Shown here one piece after another: positions 1 through 34,352 of a DNA stretch of 64,000 nucleotides (positions within the stretch are counted from its first letter, which is position 1; every line of letters starts with the position of its first letter). The notes under the pieces are model-generated. The model made no database searches. It was not told the origin of the DNA and saw nothing but the letters and a program-made list of their open reading frames with translations. This DNA is from a virus, in the IMG/VR virus record IMGVR_UViG_3300042691_044682, positions 28,322 through 92,321 of that record, one strand, 5' to 3'. The position numbers and the translations under genes are program-made.

Positions 1-16
1 GGGCCCGGTAGATGGA

Positions 17-256
17 GTGATTTCCTGTCTCGACCGGCGCGCGGCCGAAAGCCTCGCGGCGGGCGGACAGGCCTGGATCGCCCACAAGGACACGATCCTG
101 CTCCCCATCACCGCCGCCCAGTACGACCGCATCCGTGTCGTAGCCGCGCGTGACAAGTCCGATCTCCTGTATTTGGACGAAGACGCGCCGAGCGACCTCA
201 AAGACGAAATCTACGACCTGGTGGCCAACCACGAAGCCCGCGAGCTGATTGGCTGA
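17..256 (+). CDS. hypothetical early protein
   Basis: GGAG then GTG start; phage-like codon use; stop followed by repeat element A. Confidence 0.55.
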   Translation: MISCLDRRAAESLAAGGQAWIAHKDTILLPITAAQYDRIRVVAARDKSDLLYLDEDAPSDLKDEIYDLVANHEARELIG

Positions 257-359
257 CCCCTGACCAAGCGCCCCCGGCTTCGGCCGGGGGCAGTCCCCAC
301 CCGCCGGATCGCCCGGCGGGTCCGTCGAGCCCGCCGGATCGCGGGCGAAGGGACACCCG
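257..359 (+). repeat. intergenic structured element A (UUCG hairpin + hammerhead-like 3-way junction)
   Basis: gcccccggc-ttcg-gccgggggc 270-291; gtccc(293)/gggac(350) enclosing stem 299-321, ccgtcga 322-328, stem 329-346, gaa. Confidence 0.85.
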
Positions 360-521
360 ATGAACACCACCATCACCGTCCTGCAGGCCCTCGGCACCGC
401 CGGCGGCCTGCTCTTCCTGCTGAAGGTCGGCCTGGTCCTCGGAGAAGACATCTCCGAGTGGCTGCACCGCCGCCGCGCCGCCAGCCGCGCCATCATCACC
501 TACGATTCCCGGAGGCGCTGA
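360..521 (+). CDS. small membrane peptide (53 aa, not in ORF track)
   Basis: MNTTITVLQALGTAGGLLFLLKVGLVLGEDISEWLHRRR...; ATG directly after element A; TGATG coupling to next gene. Confidence 0.7.
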   Translation: MNTTITVLQALGTAGGLLFLLKVGLVLGEDISEWLHRRRAASRAIITYDSRRR

Positions 522-775
522 TGGTCCTGGGCTGGCTCGCCAGCGTCGCGGGCGCCTGCGCCCGCATGACGCTCACCCGGCCGGATCAGTGGTACCACCC
601 GAGCAACGAGCCGCCCGACACCTCGCGCGGCGTCTGGCTCCAGGGCCCCAGAGGGCTGTCCGCCTTCTGCCTGCCCGAGGACGCCTGCGCCTCGATCGTG
701 TCGGTGGTCTCGCCCACCGGGTCCATGATCCACCAGGAACGGCACATCGCCGACCTGGCCAACCAGCAGACCTGA
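521..775 (+). CDS. hypothetical protein
   Basis: TGATG overlap start (MVLGWL...), stop followed by element B. Confidence 0.6.
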   Translation: MVLGWLASVAGACARMTLTRPDQWYHPSNEPPDTSRGVWLQGPRGLSAFCLPEDACASIVSVVSPTGSMIHQERHIADLANQQT

Positions 776-873
776 CCGATGAGCCATGGCCCGCCCAGCG
801 GGCCATGCGCTAACGGAACGCCGCACCCCGCCGGCACCGTCCTTCGAGACGCGGGGTCATGGAGACATCCCCC
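776..873 (+). repeat. intergenic hairpin+pseudoknot element B
   Basis: hairpin 785-807; S1 813-823/832-840; S2 accccgc 825-831/gcggggt 851-857; core ccttcga 841-847; SD ggag 861. Confidence 0.85.
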
Positions 874-1650
874 ATGCCCAACCACGTCACCAGCAAGATC
901 ACCGTCTCCGGCCCCGCCGAGGACGTCGCCGCCTTCAAGGCGCTGATGATCCGCGAGGAGCCGACGCTCTACGGCCAGTTCCACGCTGATCCCGCGCTGC
1001 GGGGCCAGCCGACGGGCGAAACCGAGACGATCTTTGACTTCGGCCGCATCATCCCCCGCCCCGAGATTCTCGAGCGGACGGAGGAGAGCGGCGATTCCGC
1101 CCTCGGGCTCTTTGCCCTCGGCGTGGAGAATTCGGAGACCACTTTCGGCTTCCCCGCCCCGAATCCGCTCACCTATCCGTGGGTGAAGGATCTCGGCATC
1201 GAGACGCGCGAGCAGATGCTCGCATGGCTCGAGAAGGAGCGGCCCGAGGCCATCGCGGCGGCCAAGACCGCCATCGAGGCCAAGAAGCTGACGGGGCACA
1301 CAAGCTGGTACCCCTGGTCCATCGCCAACTGGGGCACGAAGTGGAACGCCTACTCGTTCCAGCTTCACGAGGAAGCGCCGGGACGGCTCGTGTACACGCA
1401 CGACACCGCCTGGTCCTTCCCCGAGCCCGTCTACGACGCGCTCTCCGAGCGCTTCCCCACCCTCCGGATCTGCATCGCGTGCTTCGACGAATGCAGCTGC
1501 TTTGCCGGCCGCGGGGCTTACAACGCCGGGCCCGACGACCAGCCCTTCGAAATCGTCGACGCGACGGACAGCATCTACGAGGAGGTCTATGGCCACCCGC
1601 CCGAGCGCTTCGACGACGAAGAGCCCGAGGCGGGGCCGGCCACCGCCTGA
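874..1650 (+). CDS. YubB/DUF1281-type ferredoxin-like fold protein
   Basis: MPNHV start, WYPWSIANWGTKWNA and DTAWSFP motifs typical of this family. Confidence 0.75.
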   Translation: MPNHVTSKITVSGPAEDVAAFKALMIREEPTLYGQFHADPALRGQPTGETETIFDFGRIIPRPEILERTEESGDSALGLFALGVENSETTFGFPAPNPLTYPWVKDLGIETREQMLAWLEKERPEAIAAAKTAIEAKKLTGHTSWYPWSIANWGTKWNAYSFQLHEEAPGRLVYTHDTAWSFPEPVYDALSERFPTLRICIACFDECSCFAGRGAYNAGPDDQPFEIVDATDSIYEEVYGHPPERFDDEEPEAGPATA

Positions 1651-1748
1651 CCTGCGCCCCCGGCTTCGGCCGGGGGCGTTCGTCCCTGTCGGCCCGTCCT
1701 GGGCCGGCCCGTCGAGCCCCGCCGGATCGCGGGGCGAAGGGACACCAC
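1651..1748 (+). repeat. intergenic structured element C (UUCG hairpin + hammerhead-like 3-way junction)
   Basis: same architecture as A: gtccc 1682/gggac 1739, stem 1688-1708, ccgtcga 1709-1715, stem 1716-1735, gaa. Confidence 0.85.
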
Positions 1749-2087
1749 ATGCCCCGCTTCCACGTCACCATCGAGCGCAAGCGCGCCGAGTACCTGACCG
1801 TGCGCGTCACGGCCGAGAACGAGGAGGAGGCCCGCAACCTCGCGCTCAAGCGCGACGGCGAGGGCCGCTACGACCTCCGCGACTGGGACGCCGGCGACGT
1901 GATCGAGGATTCGTCCGTGGTCACGCACGTCGAGCTCCCGAACTACGAGGAGCTCGCCGTGGAACTCGGCTTCGTCCTCGTCCAGAGCGCTGACAAGCAC
2001 GGCGACGAGGAGCACCTCTGGGAAAGCCCCAACGGGGTGGACCTCTATCGCACCGCCCGCGAGGCGGTGGAGAGCGCGAGCGCATGA
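1749..2087 (+). CDS. hypothetical protein (DpnD/PcfM-like VxVxAExEEEA motif)
   Basis: MPRFHVTIERKRAEYLTVRVTAENEEEA; ATG after element C. Confidence 0.7.
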   Translation: MPRFHVTIERKRAEYLTVRVTAENEEEARNLALKRDGEGRYDLRDWDAGDVIEDSSVVTHVELPNYEELAVELGFVLVQSADKHGDEEHLWESPNGVDLYRTAREAVESASA

Positions 2088-2317
2088 TCGGCTGGCACCC
2101 CTGCGAATGGATGCCCGCCATCGGGCGCTCCGCCAAGCGCCGCGCCATCGCCTGGTCCTGCCAGACCGATGCGCGGCTGCGGGTGCGCCACTGCGGCCAT
2201 CCGACCGCGCTCCGCCCCTACTACGTCGAGATCGACGGGACGTCGCAGCTCCACGAGCTCGGCACCTTCCGCCTTCTCGACGAGGCCCAGGCCGCCGCCA
2301 TGCGCGCGGTCGGCTGA
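2084..2317 (+). CDS. hypothetical protein
   Basis: ATGA overlap with previous gene; followed by terminator. Confidence 0.65.
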   Translation: MIGWHPCEWMPAIGRSAKRRAIAWSCQTDARLRVRHCGHPTALRPYYVEIDGTSQLHELGTFRLLDEAQAAAMRAVG

Positions 2318-2323
2318 CCGAAC

Positions 2324-2357
2324 CGCCCCGCTGGCTCCGGCCGGCGGGGCGTTTCTC
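2324..2357 (+). terminator. probable intrinsic terminator
   Basis: cgccccgctgg...ccggcggggcg followed by tttct. Confidence 0.6.
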
Positions 2358-2432
2358 GTGGCACCTTCATCGATTGCCCCGGCGCCTGACCCTCCGGGGT
2401 TCAGGAATTGTGCATCGGCCGAACCCGCCGCC

Positions 2433-2462
2433 TTGTTTATTCGTGATCCGTAACCATATAAG
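2433..2462 (+). promoter_or_regulatory. sigma70-like promoter for candidate ncRNA
   Basis: TTGTTT-N18-TATAAG in a locally AT-rich patch. Confidence 0.5.
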
Positions 2463-2469
2463 CTTCACG

Positions 2470-3100
2470 AGGGCAGCCCAGCCGGGCTGGTACCCTGCTC
2501 CCCCATTCAGCAACGTCAGTTTCGGGGGTGAGCAAAGGCCCGCCGCTTCTGCGCTGCGCCGTTTGGGCCGGCGCGCCGGCCGGGCAGTCCTCGAGGATCC
2601 ATCCTTCATTCCCGCGTCCCCTCCTCGTGAGGGGCCAGACCGCGAAGACCAGCCGCGCCGGGAGGCGCGGGGGAACGGGATCCGGCACGCTGCCCGCACG
2701 GCAGCGCTGCCGCCGAGCCTGCCGCGAGTGATGCCGCGGCGGGAGGAATCGGCCCACGCATCCGACCATTCTCCCCGCTGCTTCAGAGCCATGGGGTCTG
2801 GCCTGCTACGATATTCCCGAACGCCGCCCTTCGAGACGGCGCCCCCGAGGCAAGCTCCGCCGATCGGCGCTGACCAGCGCCACCGGGCGGAAAGCGCCGG
2901 CACGGTATGCCGGCCGGCTCGCCCGACGGGGTATTGGACCTGGAGCCCCGGCCGCAAGGCCGGCCCCCTGCTGAAGCGCATGGGGGGCAGTAGGACCAAT
3001 GGAACGCAAAGGTACCGCCGAACGACGCGCCTCCAGCGCGGCGGCCACCATGTGCAGAGAGAAACCCCCCACCGGCACGGTCCGGTGGGGGGTTTCGTCG
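2470..3100 (+). ncRNA. candidate large structured ncRNA (~630 nt), family unknown
   Basis: no credible ORF; promoter upstream, terminator downstream; many hairpins with GCAA/GGGA/UUCG loops and long-range complementarities. Confidence 0.6.
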
Positions 3101-3103
3101 TTT
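3061..3103. terminator. terminator hairpin between convergent units
   Basis: gaaaccccccaccgg-cacggt-ccggtggggggtttc perfect 15-bp stem. Confidence 0.75.
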
Positions 3104-3894
3104 CAGGGCGTCATCGCCGGCATGAGCTGCAGCTGGTCGGCGAGCAGGTCGAGCGCCTTGGGCACGCCCGCGAAGCGCGCCCGCCACTCGGCCTGGCGCC
3201 GCGGCAGGTCGGCCTGCACCCGCGCGCAGTGCGCCCGCCAGGCGCGCAGGTCGCTCTCGTGCGCCTCGGCCAGCCGCGCCAGGCGCCGCCCATACTCCTC
3301 CGCGCTCTCGTCGTGCCGCTGCGGCGGCGGCTCGCGCTCCGGCGGCGCCGGCGGCAGGCCCGGATAGGGCGCCACCTCAAGCTCGAACAGCACCAAGTCC
3401 AGCAACACGCCCAGCACCGGCCAGCTCAGCCGCCCGGCCAGGAGCGTGATGACCCGCCGTGCGCGCGTCACCCGCGGCGGCTCGAGCGCCTCATGGTTCC
3501 GGCCCGGCGCGCCGACGTCGTAGCGCCCCGACCAGCGCCGCTGCACGCCCGCCCGGGTGGCGTACTCGCGCAGGTCCGCCGCGGCCTGCAGGCGCCGGCG
3601 CAGCACGTCGCCCGTGTCGCCGAGCGCGCCACCAATCAGCAGCACCTCGATCGGACCGGGCAGCGCGGCATAGGCGGGGCCGAGGAGGGCGTAGATCTTG
3701 TCGCGGGCCAGCTGCAGGCCGCCGCGCTGGCGTTGCCGCTCCGGGGTGCCGCGATCGGCGCCCCATTTCTGCAGGATCAGGCCGGTGTCACGGTCCCGGT
3801 AGACCTCGACCTGCTCGCGCCGCCGGGTCGCCTCATGGCGAGTTCCCTTGGCCAGCCGCTTGAACCTGGACTTCCACCGCTTCGCCAACCGCAT
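3103..3894 (-). CDS. hypothetical protein, possibly late-gene regulator (DUF6456-like)
   Basis: good codon bias; C-terminal ALDLLADQL helix and position at end of replication block. Confidence 0.55.
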   Translation of the reverse strand: MRLAKRWKSRFKRLAKGTRHEATRRREQVEVYRDRDTGLILQKWGADRGTPERQRQRGGLQLARDKIYALLGPAYAALPGPIEVLLIGGALGDTGDVLRRRLQAAADLREYATRAGVQRRWSGRYDVGAPGRNHEALEPPRVTRARRVITLLAGRLSWPVLGVLLDLVLFELEVAPYPGLPPAPPEREPPPQRHDESAEEYGRRLARLAEAHESDLRAWRAHCARVQADLPRRQAEWRARFAGVPKALDLLADQLQLMPAMTP

Positions 3895-6338: not shown

Positions 6339-7465
6339 GAGATCCTCCTCGTTGCGAAGGTGACGTCTATCGGCTCGCCCGGGCCCTCGGCCTCGCGGCG
6401 CATGTCGTCCATCAGCCAGTCGAGCTTGCCCGGCCGGTCGCGGTAGACCTCGCCGCCGTGGCGGGTCGTCTCGGTCTTGTCGGGGAACAGCCCGGTCCAG
6501 CCGTTGGCGATGGATTGCTCGATGACGAGGCGCGGGTCCTGGCCCTTGGCGCGAAGGCGGTCGAGGGCCTTGAGCGACAACTCGGCCGCCCGCTGCGTCC
6601 AGCGCGCCTTGGCGACCTCGGCGCGGTAGCGCGACCAGTCGTCCCAGGCGTCGGCCGGCAGCCAGTCAGGCAGCGCTACGGCGATTTCCGGACGCGGCTT
6701 CGTGCGCCCCGCTCCCCCCCTGGGGGGGGACCCGTCCGAAGGACGGGGGGGGGATTCTTTCTTCTTCTCTACTACCTTCTCCTTCTCTATGGCATTTTCC
6801 GGCATGGCATCAGCATGGTTCGCGGAGTCCGAGGTTTTCTGCGGCTTTGCGGGAAAATGTAACGCGGCACTGGAAGTTACCGGCGGCGTTACAGGCGTTA
6901 CTGCGGGCGTTACGGTAACGCTGGTAACGGCGTTACGCGTTACACCCTCCGACGGCGTTACAGCCCCCGCCGCCGCACGACGGCGCGCCCGCAGCGCCGC
7001 CACCCGCTGGCGGGTCTTCTCGCGCCTCTCGTCCTCCTCGCTGACCCGCCCCCACCGCGCCGCCGCACCCGCATGCGCGCTCCGCCGCCGCGCCGATCGC
7101 CGCTCCCACGCATGCAGGACCGCCTCTGCCACGACCGGGTGGTACAGCCGCCCATCCGAGCATCGGACCCAATGTCGCAGCGCGACCCCCCGCACCTCCG
7201 GCCACAGCGCGCCCGCGCCCGAGAGGTGCTGCAGCACCCTGTCATCGTCCGGCAGGCTGCCCGCCGGCACCTGGTTCCACGACTTCGCCCACAGCGTCAC
7301 GCCAGCCTTGAACTCAGCCCCGTTCGCCAGCGCGTAGAAGTCGCTGTCCAGCAGGCGCATCACGTCGAGAGGCATGAAGCGCAGCCCGCGCAGGTCGGCC
7401 TCCGCCGGCACCAGGGGGTCCGGAAGGCCCTCCTCCCCATCCCGCAGGCGGACCACTCTTGCCAT
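6335..7465 (-). CDS. phage replication initiator, DUF1376/YdaU family
   Basis: FMPLDVMRLLDSD...LWAKSWNQVPAGSLPDDD...DGRLYHPVVAE; C-terminal WDDW...IEQSIANGWTGLF. Confidence 0.85.
   Translation of the reverse strand: MARVVRLRDGEEGLPDPLVPAEADLRGLRFMPLDVMRLLDSDFYALANGAEFKAGVTLWAKSWNQVPAGSLPDDDRVLQHLSGAGALWPEVRGVALRHWVRCSDGRLYHPVVAEAVLHAWERRSARRRSAHAGAAARWGRVSEEDERREKTRQRVAALRARRRAAAGAVTPSEGVTRNAVTSVTVTPAVTPVTPPVTSSAALHFPAKPQKTSDSANHADAMPENAIEKEKVVEKKKESPPRPSDGSPPRGGAGRTKPRPEIAVALPDWLPADAWDDWSRYRAEVAKARWTQRAAELSLKALDRLRAKGQDPRLVIEQSIANGWTGLFPDKTETTRHGGEVYRDRPGKLDWLMDDMRREAEGPGEPIDVTFATRRIS
6858..6962. repeat. iteron-like GCGTTAC/GTAACG repeats, probable replication origin inside initiator gene
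   Basis: about ten GTTAC/GTAAC units next to the T-rich tract 6756-6800. Confidence 0.65.
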
Positions 7466-7717: not shown

Positions 7718-8260
7718 ATGCCGAAAGCGACCATCACGATCGGCGGCCCCATGAATTCCGAGGGGTTCGCCATGCTTGCCGCCGCCATGGCCGACGACGG
7801 CCTGCCGACGCGCGATCCCGACGACGACGCGGGCCCGGGCCAGCAGCCCACCCTCACCGCCGCCGGCACCGCCGACCCGGCCTTCTACCGCCAGGCGCTC
7901 ATCGACGCCCAGGCCGCCAACGAGCCCATCTCGCTCGGCACCTGGGACAACGACGACGACGTCACCGACGCCGGCAAGTACACCCTGCGCTGCGCCGACC
8001 AGCTCGCCCTGGTCGTGCGCACCTACCAGCCCGGCGGCTTCGATCCCGACTATGGCGAAGACCGCGACGCCTACATCGCCATCTCAGGACGCCTCGCCCC
8101 CGTGCGCGGCTCCGCCTGGATCGGCAGCGACGGCGAGCCGATGCTCCCCATCGCGCGCGCCGACATCGCGTCCTCGGACGCATTCAGGGCCCGCTACGAC
8201 GACGCCAGGAAAGCCTGGGCCGTCATCGACGCCAAGGTCCCGCCGATCGACATCCTCTGA
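7718..8260 (+). CDS. hypothetical early protein
   Basis: gagg SD, strong GC3 bias. Confidence 0.75.
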   Translation: MPKATITIGGPMNSEGFAMLAAAMADDGLPTRDPDDDAGPGQQPTLTAAGTADPAFYRQALIDAQAANEPISLGTWDNDDDVTDAGKYTLRCADQLALVVRTYQPGGFDPDYGEDRDAYIAISGRLAPVRGSAWIGSDGEPMLPIARADIASSDAFRARYDDARKAWAVIDAKVPPIDIL

Positions 8261-8343
8261 CCGCAAGCACGGCGCCCCTCCCGGGGCGCCGGCGCTTGCC
8301 GCGGCACTCCCGCCGCGGCCCGTTGAGCAAGAGGAACCACCCC
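8261..8343 (+). repeat. intergenic element D (degenerate S2)
   Basis: hairpin 8263-8299; S1 gccgcggc 8298/8312; core ccgttga 8320-8326. Confidence 0.7.
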
Positions 8344-10479: not shown

Positions 10480-10569
10480 TCGCATGCCCGCCCGGCCCCG
10501 CGTCGGGCGGGACATGCGATGCCTCGCCCCCGGGCATCGCCCGTCGCGAATGGGGGCCGGAGACACCAT
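10480..10569 (+). repeat. intergenic element G
   Basis: S1 gcgatgcct 10516/gggcatcgc 10532; S2 gccccc 10526/gggggc 10552; core ccgtcgc 10541. Confidence 0.9.
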
Positions 10570-11187: not shown

Positions 11188-11280
11188 GAGTCCGGCGCCC
11201 CTTCCCGGGGCGCCGGCGCTAGCGGCGTCTCCCCCCGGGCGCCGCCCTTCGATCACGGGGGATCATGGAGAACCACTACC
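11188..11280 (+). repeat. intergenic element H
   Basis: S1 gcggcgtc 11222/ggcgccgc 11238; S2 tccccc 11230/ggggga 11257; core ccttcga 11246. Confidence 0.85.
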
Positions 11281-11580
11281 ATGACGACCAACGCTGCGCG
11301 CCGCGACCCGGCGCGCATCGAGCAGGCCATCGAGTGCCTGCGCCACGCCCGCCGCCTCCTCCGCAAGGCGGGCTGCAAGCGCGCCGCCCAGCGCGTCCGC
11401 GGCGCCCTCAAGAGCGCCGAGGGCGCGCACCGGCACGCCGAGAACCTGGTGGTCCGGCACGGCGACTACGGCCCGCCGGCGCCCGCCATCACCACCGACC
11501 TACTGCAGCCGCCGCCCGACCTCGCCCAGAAGTGGGAGGCCGAGGCGCGCCGGCTGACCGCGGCGGCGGGAGCCTCGTGA
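11281..11580 (+). CDS. hypothetical early protein
   Basis: ATG after element H. Confidence 0.7.
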   Translation: MTTNAARRDPARIEQAIECLRHARRLLRKAGCKRAAQRVRGALKSAEGAHRHAENLVVRHGDYGPPAPAITTDLLQPPPDLAQKWEAEARRLTAAAGAS

Positions 11581-11876
11581 TGAACACGCCGCTCCCGCCG
11601 CCGGTCGGCTTCGTCGTCTACCGCAGCGCCGCGAAAGCGGCGGTGCAGTGGAGCCGCACCGTGAAGCTCGCCGAGACCAAGACCTTCGTCGAGGCCTGCA
11701 TCAAGGCCGTCGCGCACTCCAAGAAGATCAACGGGGAGACCCGCGTCTTCCCGGTCGGTGCCGACCCCCGCAATGGCGCAAATGCCTGGGCGGTGGCCTG
11801 GTACGGCGAGACCATCCACCTGCGGCACGGCCCGTCGATGCGCGACATCATCGCGCGCGCCGCGGCCGCGACCTGA
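11580..11876 (+). CDS. hypothetical early protein
   Basis: TGATG coupling, MNTPLP. Confidence 0.7.
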   Translation: MNTPLPPPVGFVVYRSAAKAAVQWSRTVKLAETKTFVEACIKAVAHSKKINGETRVFPVGADPRNGANAWAVAWYGETIHLRHGPSMRDIIARAAAAT

Positions 11877-11969
11877 TCGTCTGCCACCGCCGGCTTCGGC
11901 CGGCGGTGCGCAAGCGATGCCACGCCCCCGGGCATTGCCCGTCGCGAACAGGGGGCCATGGAGACCACC
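11877..11969 (+). repeat. intergenic element I (close relative of G)
   Basis: UUCG hairpin; S1 gcgatgcc 11914/ggcattgc 11931; S2 gccccc 11924/gggggc 11951; core ccgtcgc 11939. Confidence 0.9.
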
Positions 11970-13792: not shown

Positions 13793-13885
13793 TCGCATGC
13801 CGCCGCCTGGGCAACCGGGCGGCGCGCAAGCGTCTCAGCCGCCCCCCATGGGACGCCCGTCGTGAACGGGGGGAAGGAGATACCC
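13793..13885 (+). repeat. intergenic element K
   Basis: GCAA hairpin; S1 gcgtctca 13830/tgggacgc 13849; S2 cccccc 13842/gggggg 13868; core ccgtcgt 13857. Confidence 0.9.
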
Positions 13886-14014: not shown

Positions 14015-14112
14015 CCGCGTGCCGCCGGCCTCCGCTCAGGGGGCCGGCGTGCAAGCCGGTCCGCGCCCCAGGGACCGGCCCTTCGAGGAAATGGGGCGAA
14101 GGAAGAGAGAGC
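14015..14112 (+). repeat. intergenic element L
   Basis: S1 gccggtcc 14055/ggaccggc 14072; S2 cgcccca 14064/tggggcg 14092; core ccttcga 14080. Confidence 0.9.
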
Positions 14113-14358: not shown

Positions 14359-14454
14359 CACATCGAGCCGCCTCCCCGGCGGCTCGACATTCTTGGACGT
14401 TTCCTCCCTAGACTCGGCCGCTGGCGGACCACCCGCCGGCGGCCTTTCTTTTTT
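14359..14454 (+). ncRNA. suhB/MmgR (alpha-r8)-like small RNA
   Basis: 5' hairpin, then TCTTGGACGTTTCCTCCCTAGACT, then intrinsic terminator; TATGCT -10 at 14347. Confidence 0.7.
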
Positions 14455-14458
14455 CCGC

Positions 14459-14487
14459 TTGACGCAAACCACAGGATCGTGTTGTTT
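14459..14487 (+). promoter_or_regulatory. promoter with overlapping CACA-N6-TGT operator
   Basis: TTGACG-N17-TTGTTT; aaccaca-ggatcg-tgttgtt 14467-14486. Confidence 0.6.
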
Positions 14488-27806: not shown

Positions 27807-28328
27807 TCAGGCCGAGACCAGGGCCGCCTGGCGGAACATCTCGTCCAGGTTCGCGTCCGTCAGGCCGAACTGGGCCGCCATCTGCTGCACCAGCACCCCG
27901 TTCCGGGTGATCGTGTTCGCGTATTCCCACGCCTGCCATGCCGTCCCGCCCATCGCCCGCAGCGTGTCGTCGACGTCCTCGAAGAGCGTCCTGCCCTCGG
28001 CGCTGCCGGGCATGCCCATCAGCACCGCTCGAGCCTGGAAGTTCGTGATCTCCGGCGGCACGGTGCTGCCCGGCGGCAGCGGCGGCGTCGACGGCGTCCA
28101 GGCGCTCCAGGCGTCGATCGCGCTCTGAAAGCGCCCGATGTCGGTGAACCGCTCGTTCGGCGGGCGGGAGATCGGGCCGTCGCCATCATGGTCGACGAAT
28201 TCGATCTCGCCCTTGGCCCCATACCACTGCACTGCATGGATGTTGGCCGCGACGTCGAGCAGCAGCGGCCCGCGCGCCTGGCCATCGATGATGACGATGC
28301 GCTGCGCGGGCAGGATGGTCATCCGCAT
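27807..28328 (-). CDS. tail fibre assembly-type protein
   Basis: IHAVQWYG.KGEIE; ITNFQAR...WEYA..I.R...LDEMFRQAA. Confidence 0.65.
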   Translation of the reverse strand: MRMTILPAQRIVIIDGQARGPLLLDVAANIHAVQWYGAKGEIEFVDHDGDGPISRPPNERFTDIGRFQSAIDAWSAWTPSTPPLPPGSTVPPEITNFQARAVLMGMPGSAEGRTLFEDVDDTLRAMGGTAWQAWEYANTITRNGVLVQQMAAQFGLTDANLDEMFRQAALVSA

Positions 28329-30155: not shown

Positions 30156-32801
30156 TCAGATCTCCCGCACCACGATGTTCTGCCGAGGCTGGTCTTCGGC
30201 CGCAGGCACCGAAACGACGCGCTCGCGCGCAGCGATCGTGGGGGAGCGCAGCCACACTACCGTCCCCGGCACCGGATAAGTCCCGGCCCGGATATTTTTC
30301 ACGAGGAATTCACGCGCGAGCACCCGCGCGAAGCGCAGGTTGAAGATGACCTCGAGGCCCGCCTCGCCGGCCAGCAGGGCCTCGGCGAAGGCGGTCCGGT
30401 AGGCCTCGGCGAGCAGATCACCCTGGCCCAGCAGCAGCGCCTCGGCGCCGAGCAGGATGCGCGGCTCCGGCGCGACCAGGCCGCCCTGGCCGGCCAGTGC
30501 CGCAAGGGCGGCCAGATCCAGCCGGGCCAGCCCCGAGAGCCCGCCCTGCCCCGCCAGCGCCGCCGCGGCGAGCCGCTGCGCCTGGGGCGTCGCCGCAAGA
30601 GTGCCAGCGCCGGTGAGGGAGGCCAGCGCGCGCGCCCAGAGGCCCGCCTCAGCAGCCAGGGTGCCAGCGCCGGACAGCGCCACCGCGATCGAGGCGCCGC
30701 CCGTCGTGCTGGCGGCGAGGTTGCCTATACCGGAGAGGGCCGCCGCGATAGACAAACGAGCTTGTGGCTCGGCCGTGAGAGACAACGCCCCGGCCAGCGC
30801 CGCCTCGGCCAGCGCGATCCGCCGCGCGTCGGTGGCGAGGGTGCCGGCGCCGGCAAGCGCCTGGGTGGCGAACGAGGTCCGGCGAGCGTCTGCCGCGGCG
30901 GTGCCGGCGCCGGAGAAGGCGACGGCCAGGCGCAGGAGCGCGCGGGCGTCGGCTGCGAGCGTCCCGGTGCCGGTGAGGCTCGCGGTGCCGAGCTGCGTGC
31001 CTTCGGCGACGATGTAGAGGCTGCCGGCGCCCGAGAGGGAGGCGGCGAGCCGCAGCAGCGCCTTGGCGTCGGCCGAGACCGCGCCTGCGCCGCTCAGCAG
31101 CTCCGCGACGAGCGCGATGCGGCGGCTGTCGGCGGTGGCGGTGCCGCTGCCGGCCAGCGTGGCGGCGGCGCGTACCAGGGCGACCGGGTCGGCGTAGAGC
31201 CCACCGGCGCCCGCCAGGGCAGCCAGCGCGGCGGCCCGCATCCCCGCATCGACGGCGAGGGTGCCCTGCCCCGACAGGGCGGCCGAGGCGAACTGGGTGC
31301 CTTCGGCGGTGACAGAGATGGAGCCCGCGCCGGCCAGGCTGGCGGCGAGGCGCAGATGGGCCCGGGCATCGGCCGAGAGGCCGGCGACGGCGGCCAGGGC
31401 TGCGGCGTCGCGCAGCAGAACGCCGGCGTCGGCGGCGAGCGTCCCGACCCCCGAGAGGCTCGCGGCGGCGAAGGCGGCCCTGGTGCCGTCCACCGACACC
31501 GCGCCGGAGCCGGACAGCGCGGCGGTGACCCGGATCTGTGCGGCGGGATCCGCGGCGACCGCGCCGACACCCGTGAGGGCGGCCGAGGCGCTGACGGTCG
31601 AGCCCCCGATGTCCGGCAGGATGAGGGCGGCGAAGGCGAGGCGGACCCGGCTGCCGGCGCCGCTCTGCACCGTGGCGTCGGCGGCCAGGCTGCCGGCGCC
31701 TGCGAGCGCGGCCGTGAAGCGGATCGTGGCGGCGGCATCGGTGGCGAGGGCGCCGGCGCCGGCGAGCGCCGCCGCGGCGAGAGCCTGGTTCTGCCCGGTG
31801 GCGGCCAGGGTGCCCGCCCCGGTCAGGGCGGCGGTCCCGGTAGTGATGACCCCGGCGCTCGCGACAAGGGTGCCGGCGCCCGTCAGCGCAGCGGCGGCGA
31901 GAAGCTGGTTCTGGCCCGCGCCGACGAGGCTACCCGCCCCCGTGAGCGCCGCGGTGCCGGACTGAATGCGGCGCGCCTCGCCCGCCAGCAAACCGGCGCC
32001 GGTGAGGGATGCCTCCCCCTGGTAGGTCGTACCGCCGCCCTGGACGGTGGCGTCGGCGGCCAGGCTGCCGGCGCCCGAGAGCGCCACCGCCAGGCTCAGG
32101 GACGCCTTGGCGTCGGAGGACGCGGTGCCGGCGCCGGTGAGCGAAGCCGTCGCCTGCAGCGGGATCGGCGGGCTGATCGCCAGCGTCCACGACACCCACT
32201 GCTCGGAGGCGCTGGTGAAGGTGCCGGGGTCGAGCGACGAGGCGTTGGCCTGGTACTCGGCCGTGTTGGTCGAGGCGCCGCCCGTGCCCGCCGCCGCCTG
32301 GGTCTGGAGGTCGGTGAAGGTGCCCGGCGTGGTCGGCGCGACGGTGGCGACCGTCGTGCTGTCGCCCGAGCGGGTGACGATCCAGAGGTAGTCCTGCGCG
32401 CCGCTCGGGCCCGTGTGCTGAGGCGGGTTCGAGTTGGTCGACGAGTTGTTCGCGCTCGTGCCGGTGACCGGGTTGGTGCTGGCGTGCCCGGTGATGCGAA
32501 GCGAGGTGTGCGACGACTGCTCGGAGGCGCTGGTCGTCAGCGTGAGGGCGTCGGAGCCCTCAGCGATCTTCCAGATGATCGCGCCCGTGACGATGGTGCC
32601 GTTCGAGGCTTGCCCGAGGATGCTCCAGTTGTCGCCCGAGACGCCCGTGTTGATTGAGACGGTCGGGTTGCCGTCCACCGAGAAGACCACCACCAGCAGG
32701 TCGCCGGCCGAGATGCTGGCGGGCAGCGTGATGGCGTGCGACGTGGTGTTCGTTGCGGTGGTGCGGTTGTTCGCCCGGGTCTGGACGCTCGGAAAGGCCA
32801 T
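30156..32801 (-). CDS. fibre-like protein: N-terminal beta domain + long AxLxGxGxLxA repeat
   Basis: ~19-21 aa Ala/Gly repeats over about 600 aa. Confidence 0.8.
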   Translation of the reverse strand: MAFPSVQTRANNRTTATNTTSHAITLPASISAGDLLVVVFSVDGNPTVSINTGVSGDNWSILGQASNGTIVTGAIIWKIAEGSDALTLTTSASEQSSHTSLRITGHASTNPVTGTSANNSSTNSNPPQHTGPSGAQDYLWIVTRSGDSTTVATVAPTTPGTFTDLQTQAAAGTGGASTNTAEYQANASSLDPGTFTSASEQWVSWTLAISPPIPLQATASLTGAGTASSDAKASLSLAVALSGAGSLAADATVQGGGTTYQGEASLTGAGLLAGEARRIQSGTAALTGAGSLVGAGQNQLLAAAALTGAGTLVASAGVITTGTAALTGAGTLAATGQNQALAAAALAGAGALATDAAATIRFTAALAGAGSLAADATVQSGAGSRVRLAFAALILPDIGGSTVSASAALTGVGAVAADPAAQIRVTAALSGSGAVSVDGTRAAFAAASLSGVGTLAADAGVLLRDAAALAAVAGLSADARAHLRLAASLAGAGSISVTAEGTQFASAALSGQGTLAVDAGMRAAALAALAGAGGLYADPVALVRAAATLAGSGTATADSRRIALVAELLSGAGAVSADAKALLRLAASLSGAGSLYIVAEGTQLGTASLTGTGTLAADARALLRLAVAFSGAGTAAADARRTSFATQALAGAGTLATDARRIALAEAALAGALSLTAEPQARLSIAAALSGIGNLAASTTGGASIAVALSGAGTLAAEAGLWARALASLTGAGTLAATPQAQRLAAAALAGQGGLSGLARLDLAALAALAGQGGLVAPEPRILLGAEALLLGQGDLLAEAYRTAFAEALLAGEAGLEVIFNLRFARVLAREFLVKNIRAGTYPVPGTVVWLRSPTIAARERVVSVPAAEDQPRQNIVVREI

Positions 32802-32804
32802 GGC

Positions 32805-34352
32805 TTACGGCACCGGCACAAAGCGAAGCCTGAGGTCGGTGTAGTCCGTGATCGCGGCGCGCTCGCCCGCGCTGATCTCCTGCGTGTAGAGGGTCTCGGT
32901 GTCCGCCAGCGCCGGGTGCGACCACTCGGCGATGACGGTGGTGCCCTGCCGCAGCTGCACCGTCGCGCCAATCGTGCTGCCGTCGCGCCGCAGGGCGTAG
33001 TGCGCCTTGATCACCCCCGCCCCCGGCGCGCCGGGCAGCCCCAGTAGCATCTCGAAGGGATCCGACCCGCCGGGCGCCGACTGCGCATAGTCGGCCCAAT
33101 CGGGCGGCGGGGTCTCATCGACGCGGGACCACAGGTCCGTCGTGCCCCCGAGCTGATCCGTCCAGCCGGTCGAGGCGGTGTCGGAGGTGGGGAACATCCA
33201 CGTCTCCTTCACGTTCGCGCTGTCGACCGTCCCGACGCCGGCGAGCGCGGCGCGCGCGGCGGCGATGAGCCCCGCTTCGGTCAGCGCCGTCCCCTGCCCC
33301 GCCAGCGCGGCCAGGGCATTCGCTACCATCCCCCCTTCGGCGGCGACCGCGCCAGCGCCGGACATCGCGATGGCGGCGAGCGCCGTGCGCTGCGCGGCCG
33401 CGGCGGCGGTGCCCGCGCCGGCCAGGGCCGTGGCGAGGCGGATCTCCGCGCGCGGCTCGATGATAGCGGCGCCTGCCCCGGCGAGGGCGGCATTGGCCAG
33501 GCTGGTGCGGGTTGCCGCGGCGGCCGCGCTGCCCGCGCCCGTCAGCGAGACATTCTGTCGGACCTCGGCGCGCGGCTCGGCCGCCAGGGTGCCGGCGCCC
33601 GCCAGTGCGGCGGCGGCGAACTGTGTCGAGATGCTCGAGACGGCCAGCGCGCCTTCACCGGCCAGGGCGACACTCGCCTGCAGCAGGGCGGACGGTTCCG
33701 CCGCCAGGGCGCCCGCGCCGGCCAGGGCAGCGCTGTCGCGCAGCACAACCCCGGCCTGGGCCGCGAGGGTACCGGCACCCGTCAGCGCCGCCGTGGCGGT
33801 GTAGGTCGCCGCGGTCGAGGCCTCGGCGGCAAGGGTGCCGACGCCCGAAAACGCGGCGGTGGCGAGCAGATGGTTCTGCGCAGCCGCCGCCTGGGTGCCG
33901 ACCCCGGCCAGGGCAACGGTCGGACGAACATCAGCCCTCGGCTCGACCGTCAGAGTGCCTGCGCCGGAGAGCGCCGCCGCGGTGAGCAGCTGGTTCTGCC
34001 CGGCCGCAGCGAGCGAGCCCGCGCCGGCCAGGGCGATGTCGCCCGAGACGGACCGGCTGGCCGCGGCGGCTACGGTGCCGACGCCGACGAAGGCGACGGC
34101 GATGGACAGCGCGGCGCGCGGCTCGGCGGCGACCGTGCCGGCGCCCGTAAGGGCCGCCTCGGCGAACTGGACGCGCCTGGCGTCGGCGGCGAGCGCGCCC
34201 GCGCCGGAGAGAACCGCCGGGAGGCTAAGCTGCGCGGACGAACCGGCCGTCGCGACGCCAGCGCCGGTGAGCGACGCGGTGCCTTGGTAAGTCGTGCCGC
34301 CCGTCGCGTGTAGTTCGGCGCCACCTGGGACGAGAACGCCGAACGGCATCAT
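32805..34352 (-). CDS. fibre-like protein: AxLxGxGxLxA repeats + C-terminal domain
   Basis: same repeat as neighbour. Confidence 0.8.
   Translation of the reverse strand: MMPFGVLVPGGAELHATGGTTYQGTASLTGAGVATAGSSAQLSLPAVLSGAGALAADARRVQFAEAALTGAGTVAAEPRAALSIAVAFVGVGTVAAAASRSVSGDIALAGAGSLAAAGQNQLLTAAALSGAGTLTVEPRADVRPTVALAGVGTQAAAAQNHLLATAAFSGVGTLAAEASTAATYTATAALTGAGTLAAQAGVVLRDSAALAGAGALAAEPSALLQASVALAGEGALAVSSISTQFAAAALAGAGTLAAEPRAEVRQNVSLTGAGSAAAAATRTSLANAALAGAGAAIIEPRAEIRLATALAGAGTAAAAAQRTALAAIAMSGAGAVAAEGGMVANALAALAGQGTALTEAGLIAAARAALAGVGTVDSANVKETWMFPTSDTASTGWTDQLGGTTDLWSRVDETPPPDWADYAQSAPGGSDPFEMLLGLPGAPGAGVIKAHYALRRDGSTIGATVQLRQGTTVIAEWSHPALADTETLYTQEISAGERAAITDYTDLRLRFVPVP

Follow-up and report, generated by a model that had tools for sequence, protein, structure and literature searches.

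Hammerhead-like three-way junctions in an uncultured phage as probable topological variants of an intercistronic pseudoknot element

The window considered here, that is, the whole 64,000-nucleotide (nt) stretch of DNA that was analysed, comprises bases 28322–92321 of the 92,321-bp IMG/VR virus record IMGVR_UViG_3300042691_044682 (hereafter G000). It contains two intergenic RNA elements, A and C, which an earlier note described as type III hammerhead-like junctions, either active or catalytically dead. We conclude that A and C, together with a third copy, A', probably represent altered topologies of a phage-specific RNA element located between cistrons and not hammerheads; the claim of a new hammerhead variant most likely fails. 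The junction copies are variant members of a new family of intercistronic mRNA structures that has a narrow distribution; nearly all other copies in this family are H-type pseudoknots without the second hairpin (stem II) of the junction. More than 60 copies belong to the family, every one on the coding strand, and they are distributed over three related uncultured phages: G000, G001 (IMGVR_UViG_3300035683_000002; 100,689 bp, complete, with terminal repeats) and G002 (IMGVR_UViG_3300016482_000089).

Elements A and C lie in a series of small plus-strand genes at the left end of the window (positions 1–2317). Each is preceded by a hairpin, termed P0, and followed by a start codon.

271–290, plus strand: P0 hairpin of unit A, CCCCCGGC-TTCG-GCCGGGGG, 14 nt past the stop codon; no T-run, not classed as a terminator in the terminator scan
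293–354, plus strand: element A, a three-way junction; stem III GTCCC 293–297 with GGGAC 350–354; C298; stem I 299–307 with 313–321; core CCGTCGA 322–328; stem II 329–334 with 341–346, loop CGGATC; GAA 347–349; ATG at 360
1657–1676, plus strand: P0 hairpin of unit C, identical in sequence to that of unit A
1682–1743, plus strand: element C, a three-way junction; stem III GTCCC 1682–1686 with GGGAC 1739–1743; T1687; stem I 1688–1695 with 1701–1708; core CCGTCGA 1709–1715; stem II 1716–1722 with 1729–1735; GAA 1736–1738; ATG at 1749

The three-way junction drawn in the earlier note agrees with the sequence and is both the minimum free energy (MFE) and the centroid structure predicted by ViennaRNA for A (-39.5 kcal/mol, z -3.0) and for C (-41.3 kcal/mol, z -3.0). 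Adding the upstream hairpin leaves the junction intact (z -3.4 for A and -4.1 for C). The linkers of 1, 7 and 3 nt were also read correctly in both. The count of two copies was incomplete: A', located at 28161–28263 of G000, 415 bases upstream of A and beyond the left edge of the window, shares 92% identity with A and folds into the same junction. The single unpaired C or T placed after stem III is found as C298 in A; T1687 of C, by contrast, pairs in the MFE structure with the last A of GAA (A1738) and lengthens stem III. Stem I was said to covary fully. The covariation exists, and is partial: with A and C in register, both sides are changed in three of the eight pairs and one side in a further pair. 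Stem II differs between A and C by one compensated C-G insertion, and the 5' strand GUCCC of stem III is kept in A, A' and C although the flanking sequence differs. The 3' strand, GGGAC, is the only sequence in the three copies resembling a Shine-Dalgarno (SD) sequence; it lies 5–7 nt before AUG and is paired in stem III.

The likeness of these copies to the hammerhead is considerable. Type III geometry, with loop-closed stems I and II and the 1/7/3 linkers, is found in A, A' and C in both MFE and centroid structures. A and C have C3, G5, G8, A9, the G10.1-C11.1 pair and G12, A13 and A14 (GAA at 347–349 and 1736–1738), and position 17 is not G (C298 in A, U1687 in C). The core strand CCGUCGA, however, departs from the required C3-U4-G5-A6-N7-G8-A9 at positions 4 (C) and 6 (U), and the A15.1-U16.1 pair is replaced by G350-C297 in A and by G1739-C1686 in C. 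The additional pair in C joins A14 to U17 in hammerhead numbering. The earlier note proposed scoring against the Rfam hammerhead models; no match at E ≤ 10 was obtained with these covariance models, either on 121-nt windows with the filters at their laxest or on 15 kb. No canonical hammerhead reaches the gathering score in the window or in the scanned early regions of the three phages. With three core violations occurring together and no model match, the identification as a hammerhead, active or dead, was not upheld.

The letters that A and C share with the hammerhead are also found in the pseudoknot family. The repeated unit of this family begins after a stop codon with P0 (a GC hairpin without a T-run), followed by the first strand of stem S1 (S1a), 2–3 nt, the first strand of stem S2 (S2a), 0–1 nt and S1b. 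The motif CC(G/T)TCG(A) and 2–5 further nt come next, and then S2b, the SD sequence and ATG. The distance from stop codon to S1a is mostly 27–45 nt (median 33.5), and that from S2b to the start codon mostly 11–16 nt (median 13). In canonical copies the pseudoknot ends 1–3 nt before a free GGAG or GGAC. In the early arrays of G000, most junctions between non-overlapping genes carry the unit. It is missing before the first gene of the right array (window position 7718), just after the divergent promoter region, and at overlapping, coupled junctions such as 518–523 and 11577–11582, and is specific to non-overlapping internal junctions. The other copies recorded in the window are as follows.

813–864, plus strand: element B, pseudoknot type, between A and C; S1 ACGG..GCCG/CGGC.CCGT, S2 ACCCCGC/GCGGGGT, loop CCTTCGAGA
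8290–8340, plus strand: copy e4, CTTGC, a hairpin, then CCCGTTGA GCAAG; possibly nested without stem II, fold ambiguous
10514–10564, plus strand: canonical pseudoknot copy, GCGATGCC-TC-GCCCCC-G-GGCATCGC-CCGTCGCGAAT-GGGGGC-CGGAGAC
11220–11271, plus strand: pseudoknot copy, core CCTTCGATCAC, S2 TCCCCC/GGGGGA
11912–11964, plus strand: pseudoknot copy
13828–13880, plus strand: pseudoknot copy
14053–14104, plus strand: pseudoknot copy, core CCTTCGAGGAAA, S2 GCCCCA/TGGGGC

Copy e4 was considered as a second example of nested topology and rejected because its fold is ambiguous.

A loose pattern for the unit gives 14 matches in G000, 22 in G001 and 18 in G002, nearly all of them true and every one on the coding strand, against 0–2 matches for a reversed-pattern control. 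A covariance model, R1, was built from ten copies and is biased to G001 and G002 sequences; at E ≤ 1 it finds 57 matches. These all lie on the coding strand; most are true, and at least three low-scoring ones are spurious. In the corresponding alignment, pairing is present in 97.6% of cells for both pseudoknot helices, and eight pairs have both sides changed. The covariation score is 0.301, compared with 0.089 for shuffled alignments (none of 500 reached the observed value) and about 0.03 for slid partners. Most of the covariation is held by S1. S2 is nearly invariant in G001 and G002 (GCCCCC/GGGGGC) and varies with compensation in G000 (CGCTGC/GCAGCG, GCCCGC/GCGGGC, ACCCCGC/GCGGGGT, TCCCCC/GGGGGA). 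The loop was also compared with the decoding site and the 3' end of 16S rRNA; the resemblances were at chance level and were rejected.

The distribution of the family is narrow. Scanned against Rfam, the window and the early regions of all three phages gave no family at its gathering score, and at E ≤ 10 the elements themselves matched no other family either. A pseudoknot scan of viral contigs identified only G001 and G002 as carriers, the singleton matches scoring at most 25 bits by R1, and a scan of genome contigs gave only chance matches among the 120 matches listed, including two Methylobacterium loci. Two cassette proteins are common to all three phages and most cargo genes are not. Since the units are conserved and most of the cargo genes are not shared, the units behave as a constant frame of exchangeable cassettes. 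The shared 205-aa (amino acid) cassette protein was tried as a trans-acting factor and dropped, its Arg-rich N-terminus being absent in G001 and G002. In G002, a pseudoknot copy on the minus strand (L035:9235-9302) has no gene behind it, and a second copy 87 nt on (L035:9148-9215, minus strand) heads a 401-aa gene; the pair looks like a tandem duplication of the unit.

Elements A, A' and C occupy the slot of this family, between P0 and the start codon and on the coding strand. Each has a perfect hairpin whose 3' strand abuts CCGTCGA (313–321 then 322–328 in A; 1701–1708 then 1709–1715 in C), as S1b does in the pseudoknot copies. The loop of the G000 pseudoknots is CCGTCG-N-GAA-N (CGAAT, CGAAC, TGAAC, AGAAT), which confirms the observation that one CCGTCG core is displayed on two topologies. 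Read letter by letter, the strand CCGTCGA-[hairpin]-GAA of the A-type copies is evidently the G000 pseudoknot loop split by an inserted hairpin. The remaining difference lies in the 3' helix. In A and A' the H-type S2, a pairing of the S1 loop with the strand 5' of the SD sequence, is not found, as the loop AUCGC cannot pair with GGGAC. The alternative gtcct/gggac pseudoknot suggested for C is sterically doubtful: its 5-nt loop GUCCU could pair with GGGAC, but the pairing takes the whole loop and leaves no crossing loop. Instead, the partner of GGGAC in all three copies is the GUCCC just 5' of S1. The same helix exists in both arrangements, because the G001 copy L033:5717-5790 is an ordinary pseudoknot that uses GTCCC/GGGAC as S2, with GGGAC 5 nt before GTG.

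The stem II hairpin sequence is confined to A, A' and C. No junction-type copy was found in G001 or G002, nor among the at least 119 A-type pattern matches listed for viral contigs; none of these matches had both hairpins, and all are therefore taken as chance. Because the pseudoknot is present in all three phages and the junction only in three clustered G000 copies, parsimony suggests that the junction arose recently from the pseudoknot and not the reverse. Two minus-strand copies in G001, L034:5090-5201 and L034:6347-6445, have extra sequence past the core, one with about 45 nt inserted after CCGTCGAGA and the other with a long spacer before the SD sequence. The A-type hairpin is thus not the sole insertion in the post-core region.

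Several observations weigh against this reading of the junction copies. The scores that R1, built from G001 and G002 copies, assigns to A (8.0 bits) and C (6.3 bits) are weak. B, an undoubted copy, scores as weakly (6.4 bits), so A and C are assigned to the family by their architecture and the core they have in common with it. Stem III is without covariation, GTCCC/GGGAC being identical in all three copies. The support that applies to the junction itself is thin, coming from two independent sequences only, whereas the family as a whole supports stem I and the core. Copies A and A' contain a 13-nt direct repeat, CCCGCCGGATCGC (299–311 and 330–342 in A), which supplies the 5' sides of stems I and II. 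The repeat permits a rival long hairpin, and only about half of the ensemble predicted for these two copies adopts the junction; C has no such repeat. The alternative long hairpin would show CCGUCGA in its loop. Under the family interpretation, the exact 1/7/3 agreement with hammerhead linkers is an unexplained coincidence, and the translational role of the elements is deduced from position only.

The position and spacing of the unit, from which we infer its role, tie it to initiation of the downstream cistron. The standard unit consists of a stop codon, P0, an H-type pseudoknot with CCGUCGA in its second loop, an SD sequence and AUG, and would act in cis on the polycistronic early mRNA by setting translation initiation of the downstream gene. 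Two changes probably produced A, A' and C: insertion of the stem II hairpin between CCGUCGA and GAA, and re-pairing of GGGAC with the GUCCC upstream of stem I, not with the stem I loop, giving a nested three-way junction. Because the only SD-like sequence is buried in stem III of a stable fold (about -40 kcal/mol), the three junction cassettes, including that of a 53-aa membrane peptide, are predicted to be translationally damped or gated. CCGUCGA would be either a tertiary-structure element or the contact for a factor, ribosome or protein, common to both forms. Close functional parallels are the Escherichia coli rpsO/S15 and phage T4 gene 32 operators, single autoregulatory sites bound by the encoded protein. 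They similarly place a pseudoknot at the 5' edge of the ribosome binding site, where it can dock on or block the 30S subunit, and control initiation in cis; in contrast to them, the units described here occur in at least 20 copies per genome before unrelated genes. Pseudoknot operators close to the SD sequence have been reviewed (PMC3014915).

Alternatively, the unit could be an RNA-processing site, in which P0 and the pseudoknot or junction guide an endoribonuclease of the host or the phage to the intercistronic region, with a cut between P0 and the element. Each resulting monocistronic mRNA would then have a structured 5' end and finish in a hairpin. RNase III cuts the T7 early transcript between cistrons in this way, at bulged hairpins, and the T4 PeSL units combine an early promoter with a stem-loop. 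Both of these systems resemble the present one in having a repeated structured element at early-gene boundaries that outlasts the cargo genes; they differ in that neither is known to have a pseudoknot or a CCGUCGA strand. The location of the unit at non-overlapping junctions of a long operon, the lack of a T-run after P0, the conserved single strand beside helices and the fixed spacing to both cistrons are all consistent with processing. On the other hand, the tight start-codon spacing and the overlap with the SD sequence point to initiation rather than cleavage. We consider processing unlikely as the principal role, and it is compatible with, not exclusive of, translational control.

A role as a sensor or operator has a lower probability still. 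Under this hypothesis, CCGUCGA and its helices would bind a small molecule or a phage protein and switch the early cassettes jointly, the junction being a variant aptamer. Invariant unpaired letters adjoining covarying stems, and a 3' helix that abuts or contains the SD sequence, are features expected of such a device. However, the 3' helix lies at opposite ends of stem I in the two topologies, which is hard to fit to one binding pocket, and the element has at least 20 copies per genome, is found only in three phages and matches no Rfam riboswitch. The Arg-rich N-terminus of the conserved early protein is missing in G001 and G002.

It is very improbable that the repeats act at the DNA level, as cassette boundaries that favour the shuffling of early genes by recombination, with the RNA folds incidental. 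The conservation of elements between flanking genes that are mostly not shared by the phages would agree with this. Compensatory changes that preserve pairing, strict coding-strand orientation and fixed spacing to the start codon indicate instead that selection acts on the transcript. Cassette shuffling may be a by-product.

We give hardly any credence to an active hammerhead variant, which would cleave after C298 and U1687 despite C4, U6 and G15.1-C16.1, detach the 5-nt strand and free the SD sequence. Its genomic context would be suitable, because prophages do have hammerheads beside single genes, one example lying upstream of ardA; almost all of these hammerheads have the consensus core (PMC3088659). 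Each deviation also has a single-site precedent with residual activity: variants with U4C (in a viroid), C6 or U15.1-A16.1 singly retain low activity, and U4C lowers it in vitro (PMC3088659); C occurs naturally at position 4 (PMC4075628). The combination is another matter. Mutation of C3, G5, G8, G12, A14 or A15.1 lowers activity more than 100-fold, and that of A6, A9 or A13 10–100-fold (PMC4075628); here three violations are simultaneous. As described in the legend to Fig. S7 of PMC3088659, natural hammerhead-like RNAs with more than one core deviation were inactive when tested. The loops of stems I and II are complementary over 3–4 bp (AUC/GAU in A, GUCC/GGAU in C), which is short enough for chance and is given little weight, and the excess of stem I over stem II, 3 bp in A and 1 bp in C, misfits a conserved loop-loop contact. 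The U17-A14 pair in the MFE structure of C, the lack of a model match at E ≤ 10 and the absence of canonical hammerheads noted above point in the same direction, and the matching letters are accounted for by the loop of the pseudoknot family. It is equally implausible that the junction copies are slow, non-canonical self-cleaving RNAs forming a ribozyme-gated translational switch. If they were, the pseudoknot family would have converged on hammerhead architecture.

In summary of the likeness, the junction copies share with the type III hammerhead (RF00008) hairpin-closed stems I and II, the 1/7/3 linkers, most core letters and a phage intergenic site, and differ from it in C4, U6, G-C at 15.1-16.1 and the lack of a covariance-model match, the shared letters belonging to a pseudoknot family without a stem II or a junction. 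The clustered prophage hammerheads (Perreault et al. 2011, PMC3088659) are likewise repeated small RNA structures between single small genes, in a prophage-type early or accessory region as here, and have been proposed to process long transcripts. Their catalytic core follows the consensus, and they cleave both in vitro and in vivo (PMC3088659), whereas the unit repeated here is a hairpin with a pseudoknot and a different conserved strand, and is not known to cleave. Least credible of all is that the whole family, pseudoknots included, descends from such gene-flanking hammerheads now dead: the genomic niche is the same (PMC3088659) and 7 of 11 core letters are retained in the A-type copies, but the pseudoknot occurs in three phages and the junction in three adjacent copies of one, two of them 92% identical, and the G001 and G002 copies have neither GAA nor stem II.

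Rejecting the hammerhead interpretation spares bench work founded on a coincidental likeness. The occurrence of CCGUCGA beside one hairpin in both a pseudoknot and a junction amounts to a natural experiment that can show which features of the element are important, and the junction form, with its buried SD sequence, is a ready contrast for reporter and probing studies. The family is not in Rfam and, with at least 20 copies per genome in three uncultured high-GC phages, represents a candidate way to organise the expression of early accessory cassettes.

A, B and C probably lie inside a single polycistronic transcript, since a sequence scan revealed no promoter-like sites in 1–3200 and the terminator scan found a lone T-run terminator in the left gene block. 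The features of this block are as follows.

360–521, plus strand: gene 3' of A; product 53 aa, hydrophobic, with a basic tail
521–775, plus strand: 84-aa gene, coupled to the 53-aa gene at 360–521
2324–2351, plus strand: T-run terminator, the only one in the left gene block

Only DUF1281_C, DUF5983 and a methyltransferase were matched by cargo genes in Pfam or PHROGs. No close relative was obtained when isolated phages were searched with RecT, and ARAGORN found no tRNA-like gene. In a search of sequencing runs for the A/C sequence, no RNA run was listed as carrying it; A and C are present without variants on DNA contigs of four other metagenome runs, which therefore added no covariation.

Four further observations were made in the window. 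Directly 3' of the cassette array, positions 14375–14459 (plus strand) give a near-threshold match to RF00519, the alphaproteobacterial suhB/mmgR small RNA family (39.1 bits against a gathering score of 41), with CCUCCC motifs; its loops resemble anti-SD sequences, and pairing between them and the G-rich S2b and SD strands of the units is possible in principle. Between the terminator at 2324–2351 and a convergent gene, about 650 nt (2433–3103) have no credible open reading frame or Rfam match and may be a long non-coding RNA. A C8/G8-rich palindrome at 6706–6765 (ccccccc tggggggggacccgtccgaaggacgggggggg) adjoins an AT-richer stretch within the divergent control region that separates minus-strand genes from the right cassette array. 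Finally, positions 30500–34300 (minus strand) contain a long array of diverged repeats with a 60-nt period inside a large minus-strand gene, which probably encodes a repetitive protein of the tail-fibre type.

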